Source: Candidatus Harrisonbacteria bacterium | GTDB taxonomy: Bacteria; Patescibacteriota; Minisyncoccia; UBA6257; 1-14-0-10-40-38 | Direction of reading: 5' to 3' | Assembly: GCA_023245035.1 (NCBI GenBank) | Contig: JAHFLD010000003.1 | Span: forward strand, 121,736-154,738 | Length of the DNA stretch: 33,003 bases | Part shown: positions 3,667 through 25,985 of the stretch, in pieces | Layout: every line of letters begins with the position of its first letter | How positions within the stretch are numbered: position 1 is the stretch's first letter | Program-made: the position numbers and the translations under genes | The notes under the pieces: generated by a model | Database searches by the model: none | Told to the model about the DNA's origin: nothing | What the model saw: only the letters and a program-made list of their open reading frames with translations

Positions 3667-3738
3667 GCGCCCTTAGCTCAGTGGTAGAGCGTTTCATTGA
3701 CATTGAAAAGGTCGGAGGTTCGATCCCTCCAGGGCGCA
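3667..3738 (+). tRNA. tRNA-Val(GAC)
   Basis: Acceptor GCGCCCT/AGGGCGC, anticodon arm TTTCA-TTGACAT-TGAAA, T-arm GGAGG-TTCGATC-CCTCC. Confidence 0.95.
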
Positions 3739-3741
3739 CCT

Positions 3742-3865
3742 AGATTATAAAATACCTTTAAGGTATTTTTAGTCTTATACTGGAGGGATCGAACAGTGGA
3801 GGGGGTCGAGGACCGCGTTTGGTCTCCCGTGTTGGAGATTATCCAGAACCATCGGTTCTGAAAAG
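3742..3865 (+). repeat. tRNA-trailer structured element, copy A (hairpin, anti-T-arm, conserved core)
   Basis: AT-rich hairpin 3742-3775; CTGGAGGGATCGAAC (3780-3794) is the exact reverse complement of tRNA-Val 3718-3732; core 3791-3865 is similar to 25811-25886 on the minus strand. Confidence 0.75.
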
Positions 3866-3967
3866 AGAATTGCCACGTTTCGCTTCGGTTGGCGACTAAT
3901 TGGTATTTAATTTTTGGACTAAAAACGAATTGGCGATTTGGTATTTTTTGGGAAGTTTTTTAATCGT

Positions 3968-4642
3968 ATGAGATTTAAATACATAATTTTAGTTTCCGCA
4001 GTATTGATCTTAAGTCTTATTTATTTTTTAATTTCCCATCAAACAAAGAAAAATTATATGAGTAACAACCGATCATTGCAGGAATTAGTAAATAAAACAG
4101 TTGTTTTAGAGGGAAAAGCAGCGTATGCCAAAGCGGGAGCCGCCTTGTTTGTGAATGATAATCCAGTGTACATAGAAGGCTTAGATTATTGGCCACAGGA
4201 TTTTATTGATAAGCAAGTTATTTTATCAGGCAAATTGGTTTTCAAAAGCTACATACCAAAAGTCGAAACCGACGAAAGCGGTTTGATGCGTCAGGGTAGT
4301 GGCCGTGGTAATGATTATGTTTTGGAGCAGGCGGCCATAGAGATGGACAAAGGAGATTTTGGATATAAACGACTTACAGACGCAAAAGATTTTCCTCAAG
4401 GTCAGTACCAAGAGGCTATAAAGGAAATAATTACTGAACTTGAAAATAAAAAAGAGAATCCAAAAGAATTTTTTGCAAAACTTGAACCAAATTCTACGGC
4501 TTCCAAACTTTCTTTTATATTGGTGCACCAAAATTCTTTTAAAGTTGAGAACTTGAGTTTTATTGGAAATCCGAGTGGCAAGGACAGAAAAGCTACTTAT
4601 GACTTTATTCAGAAGAAAGTCACTTTTTTATTTTATCAGTAA
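3968..4642 (+). CDS. Hypothetical protein with N-terminal membrane anchor (AT-rich, accessory)
   Basis: ORF 3938..4642; ATG 3968 precedes a hydrophobic segment (YIILVSAVLILSLIYFLI); visibly A/T-richer than flanks. Confidence 0.7.
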   Translation: MRFKYIILVSAVLILSLIYFLISHQTKKNYMSNNRSLQELVNKTVVLEGKAAYAKAGAALFVNDNPVYIEGLDYWPQDFIDKQVILSGKLVFKSYIPKVETDESGLMRQGSGRGNDYVLEQAAIEMDKGDFGYKRLTDAKDFPQGQYQEAIKEIITELENKKENPKEFFAKLEPNSTASKLSFILVHQNSFKVENLSFIGNPSGKDRKATYDFIQKKVTFLFYQ

Positions 4643-4703
4643 AATCATGGTTTTTAATTTTTAAAAAAATTGAGGCCAAATAAAAACTTGAAATTGTCAG
4701 CGT

Positions 4704-4743
4704 GCGCCTGCCCGCCTGCGCCGAGGCTTCGGCGGGCAGGCGC
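4704..4743. repeat. GC-rich palindromic (REP-like) element
   Basis: 13-bp perfect inverted repeat GCGCCTGCCCGCC/GGCGGGCAGGCGC enclosing an alternative hairpin CGCCGAGGCTTCGGCG. Confidence 0.7.
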
Positions 4744-4840
4744 CACCTTTCTTAATTTTCACGGTGGACTTCCTCGCCGCCGTAGGCGGTGAAAGCGGTT
4801 CGGACTAATTCAAGTAGTCTGTACAAAAAAAGGAAAACTT

Positions 4841-5410
4841 ATGAAATTTTCTTTTTGGAATTTTGTTGCCGGTTTTTATGATCGCCTTTTTTCGCCGATG
4901 CTTAATAGCGATATTCCGGCGATTTGTGAATTAGCCAGTTTTGAAAAGGCAGATTTAGTTTTGGACTATGGCGGAGGAACCGGGCGGGTGGCGCTCGCGA
5001 TTCGCGGTAAAGTTGCTCGGGTAATAGTTTTAGATGCCGCTTCGAAGATGATCGCGGAAGCTTGTTTAAAGGAGTTGGAGGGAGAGGTGGTTTCTGGTCT
5101 GCCGACTCATTTTGAAGCGGCTTCCTGCGACAAGATTATAGTGATTGAGTCCTTTCATCACTTGCCCAACCAGGATGATCACCTAAAAGAGTTTTGGCGC
5201 CTTTTGAAGCCCGATGGCGTTTTGTTGATTGAAGAGCCAAATCTTGATTCGGCGATTAAATATTTTCTTTGGCTGGAGCATGGGTTTAGGCATTTTCCAT
5301 ATTGGACGGCTGATACTTGGCGGGCGAAACTTTTGACCGCTGGTTTTTTGGTGCAGACCGAAAAAATCGCCGGCTCACGATATTTTGTGAAGGCCAAGAA
5401 AATTGGTTGA
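4841..5410 (+). CDS. Class I SAM-dependent methyltransferase (UbiE/Methyltransf_11-like)
   Basis: Motif I VLDYGGGTG, LDAASKMI, SFHHLP, RLLKPDGVLLI. Confidence 0.85.
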   Translation: MKFSFWNFVAGFYDRLFSPMLNSDIPAICELASFEKADLVLDYGGGTGRVALAIRGKVARVIVLDAASKMIAEACLKELEGEVVSGLPTHFEAASCDKIIVIESFHHLPNQDDHLKEFWRLLKPDGVLLIEEPNLDSAIKYFLWLEHGFRHFPYWTADTWRAKLLTAGFLVQTEKIAGSRYFVKAKKIG

Positions 5411-5435
5411 TGCCCTGGTGTGTTTTTTGTTTTTG

Positions 5436-5479
5436 TGGTATTCTTCTTATGGGTTCATTGTTCTTTGATAATTGGAGGT
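5436..5479 (+). promoter_or_regulatory. Extended -10, boxA-like motif and SD
   Basis: TGGTATTCT (5436-5444), TGTTCTTTGATA (5459-5470), GGAGGT (5474-5479). Confidence 0.6.
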
Positions 5480-5484
5480 AATTA

Positions 5485-6054
5485 ATGAGAATCGGTCTTG
5501 ATTTCGACGGAGTCATTGCTAATTGCGGCAAGTTGAAGGCCGATGGAGCGCGGGAACTTTACGGCCTTGATATCCAGCCAACAAACTTCTCTAAGGAATT
5601 TGTTGTTGGTGCGGGTTATCTGACGATCGAGGAGTATCGCAATCTTCAGCGAAAGGTTTATGAGACACCGGAGTTTATCTCTCTAATGGAGCCGGTTGGC
5701 GGGGCTTTTGAGTATGTTTCTCGACTTGTCGCGGATGGGCACATTGTTCAGGTTATAACTTCGAGAAGCGGCCTGGTTCTTGAAGTCGCGAAGGCATGGC
5801 TTTTGCGACAAGGATTAAAGCTTTCGGTTGTCGGTGTCGGCTATGGCAGGAGCAAGGCGGAAGCGGCTCTTGGTTTAGACGTTTACATCGATGATGATTT
5901 TCAGAAGCTAGAACAGCTTGTTGGTGTTGTCCCTCATAGATTCTTGTTTAGCTGGGGTTATAACGCGGGACTTGATGTTGGAACTCTGGCTCGAAGAGTT
6001 GCTTCTTGGCGGGAGTTTTACGAGGCGATCAGCTTGCTCAAAAACGCTCTGTGA
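5485..6054 (+). CDS. HAD-superfamily phosphatase, 5'(3')-nucleotidase-like
   Basis: Motif I IGLDFDGVI, motif II VITSR, motif III K, motif IV YIDD. Confidence 0.8.
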   Translation: MRIGLDFDGVIANCGKLKADGARELYGLDIQPTNFSKEFVVGAGYLTIEEYRNLQRKVYETPEFISLMEPVGGAFEYVSRLVADGHIVQVITSRSGLVLEVAKAWLLRQGLKLSVVGVGYGRSKAEAALGLDVYIDDDFQKLEQLVGVVPHRFLFSWGYNAGLDVGTLARRVASWREFYEAISLLKNAL

Positions 6055-6071
6055 ATAAGGGGCGTTTTTTT
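6040..6071 (+). terminator. Intrinsic terminator, possibly bidirectional
   Basis: AAAAACGCTCT...GGGGCGTTTTTTT stem with G-U pairs and U-tract. Confidence 0.6.
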
Positions 6072-25778: not shown

Positions 25779-25896
25779 TGGTGTCCCCGCGAGGAATCTC
25801 ACGCGCTTTGCTTTTAGAAACCGACGGTTTCTAATCTCTTCCTGAACGGGAAACCGCAGGCGGTTTCCCGACCCCTTCCACTGTTCGATTCCTCGC
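25779..25896 (-). repeat. tRNA-trailer structured element, copy B (anti-T-arm, conserved core, duplicated tRNA 3' end)
   Basis: 25883-25896 is a 14-bp perfect inverted repeat of tRNA-Arg 25921-25934; hairpins 25847-25870 and 25814-25834; 25779-25798 repeats the tRNA 3' end with CCA. Confidence 0.8.
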
Positions 25897-25913
25897 AAGA
25901 AATTTACTATTTG

Positions 25914-25985
25914 TGCCCCCGCGAGGAATCGAACCTCGATTTTTTCCTTAGGACGGAATTGCTCTATCCATTGAGCTACAGGGGC
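25914..25985 (-). tRNA. tRNA-Arg(CCT)
   Basis: GCCCCTG/CGGGGGC acceptor, D-arm GCTC-AATGGATA-GAGC, anticodon loop GTCCTAA, T-arm CGAGG-TTCGATT-CCTCG. Confidence 0.9.

Follow-up and report, generated by a model that had tools for sequence, protein, structure and literature searches.

What lies directly behind the tRNA-Val(GAC) gene of this Candidatus Harrisonbacteria genome, where an inverted copy of the tRNA's T-arm is followed by a set of hairpins and then by AT-rich genes? Candidate-phyla-radiation bacteria have tiny genomes and very few recognisable mobile elements, and their gene content varies between close relatives. The window, by which we mean the whole stretch of 33,003 nucleotides that was analysed, carries a similar arrangement behind a tRNA-Arg gene. 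The initial annotation had taken the two for copies of one element with a conserved fold and an antisense segment re-targeted to each tRNA. The genome that contains the window (G000) has 715,905 bp in 5 contigs and 47 tRNA genes. It is compared below with a sister species of the same genus (G001) and with other relatives.

Results

The copy behind tRNA-Val

The Val locus is made up of the following parts.

3667-3740, + strand: tRNA-Val(GAC), the host gene (ARAGORN; Rfam tRNA, 73.8 bits)
3749-3770, + strand: AT-rich spacer hairpin, then a T-run; terminator-like, between tRNA-Val and R
3780-3794, + strand: R, the target-complementary arm; reverse complement of tRNA-Val positions 53-67 (15/15)
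3795-3865, + strand: conserved core (covariance model, alignment, pair table)
3872-3897, + strand: variable third hairpin, past which the element is cut short (sequence; comparison with complete copies)
3898-6070 (from about 3870), + strand: strain-specific gene block of 2.2 kb, missing from the sister species (synteny, low GC)

The stretch mirrored by R, tRNA-Val positions 53-67, lies at 3718-3732 of the window, and an inverted-repeat search returned it together with 3780-3794 as arms of 15 nt, 100% complementary, with 47 nt between them. The same search found the hairpin nested in the spacer (3749-3758 with 3760-3769; 10 nt, 100% complementary), which a consensus scan of spacers skips for having fewer than 3 G-C pairs. 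Both repeats are as the initial annotation had described them. Its further proposal, a long stem incompatible with the cloverleaf, agrees with the predicted fold of a tRNA-Val transcript that includes R, in which a 15-bp T-arm:R stem replaces the cloverleaf in the minimum-energy structure (-51.1 kcal/mol, z = -4.9). A transcript that stops at 3775 is predicted to fold as the cloverleaf plus the hairpin.

Past R, the Val core runs through a purine-rich joiner (3795-3807), helix 1 (3807-3829), another joiner, helix 2 (3842-3862) and a short A-rich tail. The covariance model matches it over 3781-3869 (G000:C5:125516-125604) with 77.5 bits. Helix 1 of this copy is the most degenerate of the alignment and contains the sole A-C mismatch and the sole bulge. 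The copy breaks off at about 3897, after helix 3, and has neither the closing strand (P) nor a duplicate of the tRNA 3' end. The lack of a duplicate had been noted at the outset: the tRNA itself is the sole match in the window when 18 nt are searched with up to 3 mismatches or 13 nt with up to 2. When folded, the Val copy forms no closing stem, and with no strand for R to pair with, its fold is not significant (z = -0.36). R lacks a pairing partner here because the copy is truncated, and not because its design is different. The Val copy is thus a truncated, degenerate and decaying member of an element family.

Complete copies

The copy behind tRNA-Arg(CCT) is complete and serves as a reference.

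25913-25985, - strand: tRNA-Arg(CCT), host of the complete copy (ARAGORN; Rfam tRNA)
25883-25896, - strand: R, 14/14 complementary to tRNA-Arg positions 53-66 (25921-25934)
25807-25882, - strand: core with helices 1 and 2 (covariance-model match of 93.2 bits; inverted repeats)
25779-25802, - strand: P and the duplicated tRNA-Arg 3' end (inverted and direct repeats; fold; filled-versus-empty alignment)

The Val and Arg copies share a core of about 75 nt and the junction after GAAC (pairwise alignment; a 26-nt repeat, 92%), in agreement with the first reading of the locus. In the predicted fold of the Arg copy, R pairs with the duplicate through 10 bp, a tandem G-A/A-G internal loop and 2 bp, and this stem closes a four-way junction. 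The Leu, Pro and rplK copies are predicted to fold in the same way, with the stem of R and duplicate closing a multi-helix junction, and unconstrained minimum-energy folding gives the closing stem for 40 of 62 copies. Judged by these models, the normal partner of R is the duplicated target end downstream, which was absent from the earlier reading.

Complete units adjoin the 3' end of a conserved gene and leave it intact; the gene is rplK in two cases and otherwise almost always a tRNA gene. Its order is target 3' end, spacer, R, core, right end and duplicated target 3' end. Units have a minimum size of about 110 nt and usually measure 120-250 nt, and those of 120-250 nt contain no ORF. The spacer is typically an A-run, a hairpin and a T-run (11 spacers of G000 were read). 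T makes up 50-68% of positions -22 to -5 before R in 62 copies, and an automatic, crude test for a hairpin with T-run was positive for 11 of 38 spacers. R is the reverse complement of tRNA positions 53 to 64-72 and always ends at the complement of G53; in some copies it is lengthened to 17-20 nt and pairs with the acceptor 3' strand.

The core of about 75-90 nt holds two to three hairpins, arranged as a purine-rich joiner, helix 1, a second joiner, helix 2 and a variable helix 3, which is often a GCGAAGC mini-hairpin. In 23 of 63 copies the right end reads GTGA and goes on with the tRNA sequence from position 57; in others GTTCG is retained. Most tRNA-linked copies have direct repeats of the tRNA 3' end of 10-23 nt, the Val copy being an exception.

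Conservation of the fold

In an alignment of 64 distinct sequences, which was fitted to the covariance model and hence favours structure, 98.9% of the cells of helices 1 and 2 are paired and 14 of 19 pairs have changed on both sides. None of 500 shuffles reached this level, slid controls had at most 64% of cells paired, and RNAalifold gave the same helices on an independent MAFFT alignment. Helix 2 has five pairs with compensatory changes in an alignment of 41 sequences; in the Val copy, C3844-G3860 and the loop ATC read as the initial annotation had given them. The covariation for which it had suggested an expanded alignment is therefore strong, and its view that structure is conserved at the single-strand level stands. 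Its conserved, covarying stem holds well for helix 2; the first hairpin of the Val copy is a weak example.

The helices contain 17 G-U cells (15 of them in helix 1) against 12 non-standard cells. The G-U count points to the tRNA-sense strand as the one that folds, which would fit RNA and single-stranded DNA alike. Promoter-like signals are not enriched before R, with -10-like hexamers in 6 of 62 copies compared with 80 of 1240 control windows (6.5%).

Size and distribution of the family

A covariance model built from 41 copies finds 12 copies in G000, so that what had been called the second copy is one of 12. Eleven lie behind 11 of the 47 tRNA genes (Arg-CCT, Ser-GCT, Val-GAC, Gly-TCC, Leu-TAG, Met-CAT, Asp-GTC, Pro-CGG, Arg-GCG, Gln-CTG and Phe-GAA), on the same strand as the tRNA and 16-150 nt downstream; the remaining copy starts just past the stop codon of rplK. 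The weakest matches are those at Gln-CTG (E = 0.002) and Phe-GAA (E = 0.5), the latter a remnant. Of 101 genomes of the order, 41 carry the family according to the model (1-16 copies per genome), as do 11 of 150 further genomes chosen to cover the phylum evenly.

Of these copies of G000, a strict sequence pattern also detects the one behind tRNA-Ser(GCT), as a third beside Val and Arg; in relatives it detects copies at the tRNA genes for Pro, Lys, Val(TAC), Arg(GCG), Glu and others. Scanning public genomes for an exact pattern yielded 47 loci, nearly all in Patescibacteria MAGs labelled Parcubacteria, Paceibacteria, Liptonbacteria, Colwellbacteria, Jorgensenbacteria and Saccharibacteria. Four pattern matches outside the Patescibacteria (Kitasatospora, Clostridia, Desulfovibrio and Spirochaetales) are due to chance, the rest of the element being absent. 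The carriers are tiny groundwater bacteria (Patescibacteria).

At the gathering threshold Rfam reported tRNAs only and no family for the element, and at E of 10 or below the best matches to the Val and Arg copies reached 16.8 and 15.8 bits, against cut-offs of 67-100. Two exact core patterns had no matches in viral contigs. A literature search at the level of listings and abstracts gave no published description of the element.

Fit between arm and target

Over 50 tRNA-linked copies, an average of 12.4 of the 14 arm positions fit the tRNA of the same locus (11 perfect; 43 of 50 with at least 12), compared with a mean of 9.8 for tRNAs of other anticodons (at least 12 in 9.2% of 2398 pairs), with locus L005/L042 counted twice in these statistics. 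Chance would not come near such a fit. The re-targeted arm proposed for the Val and Arg copies is therefore a property of the family, and it extends even to rplK. Where a T-loop is unusual, the arm changes with it: the tRNA-Lys of the sister species, for instance, has a T-loop that starts with GTCC rather than the usual GTTC, and its arm ends in GGAC accordingly. Of 80 mismatches, 56 fall at positions 63-66, so the outer end of the arm holds most of them, which fits either an inherited, tolerant guide or relaxed selection.

The arms of the two rplK copies are complementary to the local rplK 3' end over 12 nt in G000 and 11 nt in G036, which belongs to another family of the order. These arms are unlike the T-loop complement and track the synonymous differences between the two rplK genes, and the rplK 3' end is duplicated downstream of both. 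The two rplK copies make the strongest case for a target-matched arm. G001 has a third copy away from tRNA genes; its direct repeat is exact over 20 nt, and the copy lies in antisense orientation at the start of a lepA-like ORF. Given that the arms fit both tRNA and rplK targets, the arm mirrors the intact target across the insertion point, whatever that target is. Near-identical cores carry differing outer arm bases, and these seem to argue for templating or gene conversion rather than slow mutation.

Filled and empty sites

The site at tRNA-Arg(CCT) is filled in G000 and empty in G001, whereas those at tRNA-Arg(CCG) and tRNA-Lys(TTT) are filled in G001 and empty in G000. In all three pairs, the downstream duplicate continues into the sequence that trails the tRNA of the empty site; the inserted DNA therefore runs from within or after the tRNA 3' end to the right end of the element. 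The spacer at Arg(CCG) is only 4 nt long, so the spacer hairpin is an optional passenger. The duplicate of the Arg(CCT) copy ends in CCA, as does the tRNA gene of its empty site. We considered a duplicated CCA as the mark of an RNA intermediate and rejected it, given that this CCA is also encoded at the empty site and the other pairs have none.

At Val-GAC, Pro-CGG and Asp-GTC the two species carry different subfamilies; the core tree, with about 70 columns, is poorly resolved and was used for gross subfamilies only. Cores at different tRNAs can be nearly identical, as between Gly-TCC of G000 and Gln-CTG of G001 (63/65) and between Gln-CTG and Met-CAT within G001 (62/66). Orthologous flanks of the two genomes are 73-82% identical over long aligned pieces, and one 200-nt piece over the tRNA genes of the Arg locus reaches 91%. 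Within G000, homology is visible between the spacer hairpins of the units at Pro-CGG, Arg-GCG and Met-CAT, and a tandem pair of units lies behind one tRNA at L061 and in G006. Filled and empty sites together with 97%-identical cores at different tRNAs point to mobility, although the three pairs could formally be precise deletions between direct repeats. The contigs of four DNA runs on the locus, which are uninformative at this level, break at the tRNA and element repeats and gave no bridging, excised, circular or empty form.

Genes behind tRNA-Val and other cargo

GC content is 0.36-0.39 over 3800-4800, so the AT-rich stretch reported behind the Val copy is there. The ORF at 3938-4642 has no match in Pfam, NCBIfam, PHROG or PADLOC; those at 4841-5410 and 5485-6054 are a SAM methyltransferase and an NT5C-type nucleotidase (both Pfam/NCBIfam). 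Downstream of its tRNA-Val(GAC), G001 has a unit that is complete, belongs to another subfamily and repeats the tRNA 3' end over 17 nt. Directly past that unit, homology with the window restarts at about 6071. The comparison of synteny that the initial annotation had called for thus gives a 2.2-kb block that is absent from the sister species. Its suggestion of a gene-acquisition point is borne out in that the site is variable, but the cargo of the Val locus lies beyond the broken end of the element and not within a unit.

Some other copies hold 0.4 to more than 3 kb of cargo between the host gene and R, and spacers between tRNA and R can reach 400-650 nt or more, genes included. Reading of translations names a NUDIX-like ORF at L055 and a GIY-YIG-like ORF at L014, and L030 has one further ORF. 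The cargo is 1.1-1.5 kb behind tRNA-Ser(GCT) at L044 and L053, and at several further loci no tRNA is within reach over more than 3 kb. The unit thus forms the distal boundary of small genomic islets.

Candidate enzymes and partners

Among 468 ORFs of at least 90 aa within 3.5 kb of 63 copies, the largest cluster shared between loci covers 6 loci and is a gene of the CCA-adding/poly(A)-polymerase family, a neighbourhood that probably reflects synteny. No integrase or recombinase cluster was found in this set. Given that no neighbouring gene family recurs beyond 6 loci, the element is non-autonomous.

The sole recombinase of G000 is a 300-aa Xer-type tyrosine recombinase encoded outside any unit (XerA_Arch, 223 bits; cut-off 220). 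Integron integrase models stayed below their cut-offs in this genome (TIGR02249, 128 bits against 265; PRK15417, 75.6 against 435), and a degenerate pattern search for a dif-like site gave weak scattered matches only. G000 has no IS110 transposase (PF01548), Y1 (HUH) transposase (PF01797) or Cas1 (PF01867), for which the controls were positive in 6, 6 and 7 of 14 genomes, respectively. The search for Y2 (PF04986) gave no match, but its control was equally silent. One retron-type reverse transcriptase is encoded in G000 and does not adjoin the element copies. It was rejected as a partner, since homologues occur in 6 of 101 relatives compared with 41 of 101 for the element, and 36 element-bearing genomes lack it. 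A reverse-transcription route for the element is unlikely.

Discussion

The elements sit at the 3' ends of conserved genes, duplicate the target end, carry a target-matched arm and a folded core, are polymorphic in their insertion, and have no genes of their own. We consider it probable that they are a multi-copy family of small non-coding, non-autonomous, guide-bearing insertion elements of Patescibacteria, with the Val copy as one truncated member. In this scenario, the unit would be moved by an enzyme supplied in trans, and R would serve as an internal guide that specifies or holds the target, analogous to those of introns, IS200/IS605 ends and bridge RNAs. The spacer hairpin and T-run may keep R off the tRNA transcript, where R would trap the T-arm.

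A bolder version is possible, though we would hold it only tentatively. It envisages an integrase-free class of mobile element built on a folded RNA or single-stranded DNA of about 100 nt, whose guide picks the 3' ends of conserved genes. Guide and duplicate would be re-templated at each move, the sites behind tRNAs would acquire genes as cassettes do, and the reaction would be carried out by a host enzyme (e.g., Xer) or be self-catalytic. When aligned on R, the element end and the target start have a modelled geometry that permits a ribozyme at the junction; no known ribozyme family in Rfam matches the element.

Several known systems resemble the element in part. Integration of a single-stranded hairpin, as by CTX-phage attP(+) with host Xer or by integron attC, would leave the order site, spacer, inverted site, body and site, and the element shows the same order (target, spacer, inverted target, body, target). 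Like attC and attP(+), it has an imperfect stem with an internal mismatch, tandem cassette-like units and promoterless cargo. There is also a link through Xer, which CTX phage borrows from its host and which is the type of the only recombinase in G000. The internal G-A/A-G loop of the closing stem recalls attC, yet the core is also strongly conserved in sequence. Unlike these sites, moreover, the element has a stem of 14-17 bp and targets a T-arm rather than dif or attI.

Internal guides are known from group I introns (IGS), group II introns (EBS), the ends of IS200/IS605 and the bridge RNA of IS110. In these systems as in the element, an internal segment complements the intact target across the insertion point and varies by copy. 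However, the element has no Rfam intron match and its core falls well short of the size of a group I or II ribozyme, its genome G000 is without Y1 or IS110 transposase, and its long target duplication is not known to be produced by any of these guide systems. MITE and REP repeats likewise lack genes of their own; they are short and non-coding, form hairpins, occur in many copies and are patchy among relatives. The element differs from them in that its terminal inverted repeat is a copy of each target rather than a fixed sequence, it is site-specific to the 3' ends of conserved genes, and no candidate transposase was found for it. In retron non-coding RNA, flanking inverted repeats close a set of hairpins. 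The element resembles it in its repeats, in the AG(C/T) that directly follows the closing stem in subfamily 1, and in the retron-type reverse transcriptase of G000, but this gene is not adjacent to the element and has a much narrower distribution (6/101 relatives against 41/101).

The main rival is a structured RNA gene that serves the host at tRNA loci. Here R and the duplicate would mimic the top half of a tRNA, an acceptor/T-stem helix ending in a 3' tail, and the RNA, processed or bound by tRNA enzymes, would act as a decoy, regulator, insulator or 3'-end stabiliser. The covariation and the excess of G-U pairs on the tRNA-sense strand are in keeping with such an RNA, as are the arms of 17-20 nt that reach the acceptor 3' strand and the CCA-adding-enzyme family as commonest neighbour (6 loci), though the last is probably a matter of synteny. 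Occupation of about a quarter of the tRNA genes (11/47), most of them the same in G000 and G001, could also reflect host function rather than an element. However, a host gene would have to be patchy in its presence (41/101 in the order, 11/150 elsewhere), vary from 1 to 16 copies, and be filled, empty or replaced by another subfamily at the same tRNA. It would also have to lie at rplK and inside the start of a lepA-like gene, follow a terminator-like hairpin with promoter-like hexamers unenriched, and tolerate truncation (Val, Phe). We therefore regard a host-serving RNA as unlikely. Even less credit is due to a fold acting in cis, in which R, by pairing with the T-arm of the pre-tRNA as it is made, would govern how this pre-tRNA matures or is turned over. 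The loss of the cloverleaf from the minimum-energy fold when R is included (-51.1 kcal/mol, z = -4.9) is what suggests it, and in most cases R fits the functional tRNA better than it fits the duplicate downstream. Yet in most copies a hairpin and T-run separate the tRNA from R, complete copies offer R a competing partner downstream, spacers can extend to 400-650 nt or more and hold genes, and the same design is found at rplK. Given this hairpin and T-run and the lack of a promoter-like signal before R, a role in pre-tRNA processing is unlikely, and we rate the cis-acting fold as very improbable.

The elements could instead be scars of integrase-driven islands, with the repeats as attL and attR and the core as an arm-type binding region left over after deletion of integrase and cargo. 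Direct repeats of a tRNA 3' end beside an intact tRNA are the hallmark of tyrosine-integrase islands, and cargo-bearing versions of the element exist. The tycheposons of Prochlorococcus show arrays and partial tRNAs at tRNA-linked islands (10.1101/2020.12.28.424599), and they share with the element insertion at the 3' part of a tRNA that stays intact, the duplicated 3' end, arrays, cargo and a streamlined genome. On the other hand, there is no integrase gene in or beside any of the 63 copies, unit size is uniform with a minimum of about 110 nt, and near-identical cores occur at different tRNAs. Compensatory changes preserve the hairpins of the core, which protein-bound double-stranded sites do not need, and R is matched to each target, including non-tRNA ones. 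Island scars are thus improbable in our view, and we retain small guide-bearing insertion elements as the preferred explanation.

If so, the family is of interest beyond the Val locus. It fills about a quarter of the tRNA genes of G000, recurs across the phylum, and is gained, lost and replaced within one genus. It bounds strain-specific gene blocks and may therefore be a main route of gene flux in these bacteria. If the arm works as a programmable guide, the element would represent a natural system for site-selecting insertion of very small size, and the long-standing question of how islets without an integrase settle at tRNA genes would become directly testable. For annotation, both the element and the duplicated tRNA 3' ends that it leaves are currently invisible to pipelines based on Rfam.

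Element copies at protein-coding genes

Two copies of the element, from two different families of the order, are linked to rplK rather than to a tRNA gene, one in the window's own genome (G000) and one in a genome from another family (G036):

Element copies behind rplK
G000:C4:43916-43981 (L085:1501-1566), element copy directly past the rplK stop codon
G036:C10:5553-5621 (L107), element copy directly past the rplK stop codon

The arm of each copy, the segment that at tRNA genes is complementary to the 3' end of the intact target, is complementary to the 3' end of its own genome's rplK over 12 nt in G000 and 11 nt in G036, and a downstream duplicate of the rplK end is present at both. The duplicate in G000 is interrupted by an extra insert of about 50 nt with two hairpins.

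A further copy, in the same-genus sister species G001 (G001:C13:6708-6793; L098:509-594), is oriented antisense to an open reading frame and located at its 5' end; we assigned this frame to a lepA-like GTPase by reading its translation. Here a 20-nt exact direct repeat spans the first codons of the frame, and the start of the frame beside the lepA-like gene body appears to lie within the complement of the element's arm.

Short repeats beyond the Val copy

Beyond the truncated copy behind tRNA-Val(GAC), TTGGTATTT is found twice in the stretch 3900-3948 of the window, at 3900 and at 3938. The sequence GGTATTTTT, which is similar to the spacer hairpin's 3' arm, is also found twice, at 3762 and at 3940. 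This pattern may mean that part of another spacer copy, the second, was left behind when a deletion took out the duplicate.

Other motifs, repeats and genes

In several cargo-bearing loci (L030, L041, L044, L052 and L062) a GACCGAG motif followed by an acceptor-like 3' end immediately precedes the spacer hairpin, and this combination may be either what is left of a tRNA-like sequence or a module of a second type. The heptamer GCGAAGC is frequent among the copies (e.g., L003, L005, L013, L034, L056 and L060), where the mini-hairpin that it forms is found in helix 3, in insertions separating helices 1 and 2, and in the duplicated T-loop of tRNA-Ser copies. Elsewhere in the window, tRNA-Ala(TGC) is flanked by a 23-nt inverted repeat (25088-25110/25187-25209; 83% complementary).

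In the strain-specific block, the methyltransferase at 4841-5410 is hit by the PADLOC model mad2 (E = 7e-15), which belongs to the candidate defence system mads_2; the match is confined to its methyltransferase part. In the region G000:C5:26271-27524 (L075), the gene for the sole tyrosine recombinase of G000, a Xer-type protein of 300 aa, precedes tRNA-Leu(TAG) by 77 nt, and this tRNA gene in turn bears an element copy. G000 also encodes a retron-type reverse transcriptase of 313 aa (G000:C3:82213-83151; L076:1402-2343), which scores 94 bits against the St85-family model, under that model's cut-off. Its gene lies 437 nt downstream from tRNA-Gly(GCC), with a gene for an ECF sigma factor next after it, and homologues are found in 6 of 101 relatives.
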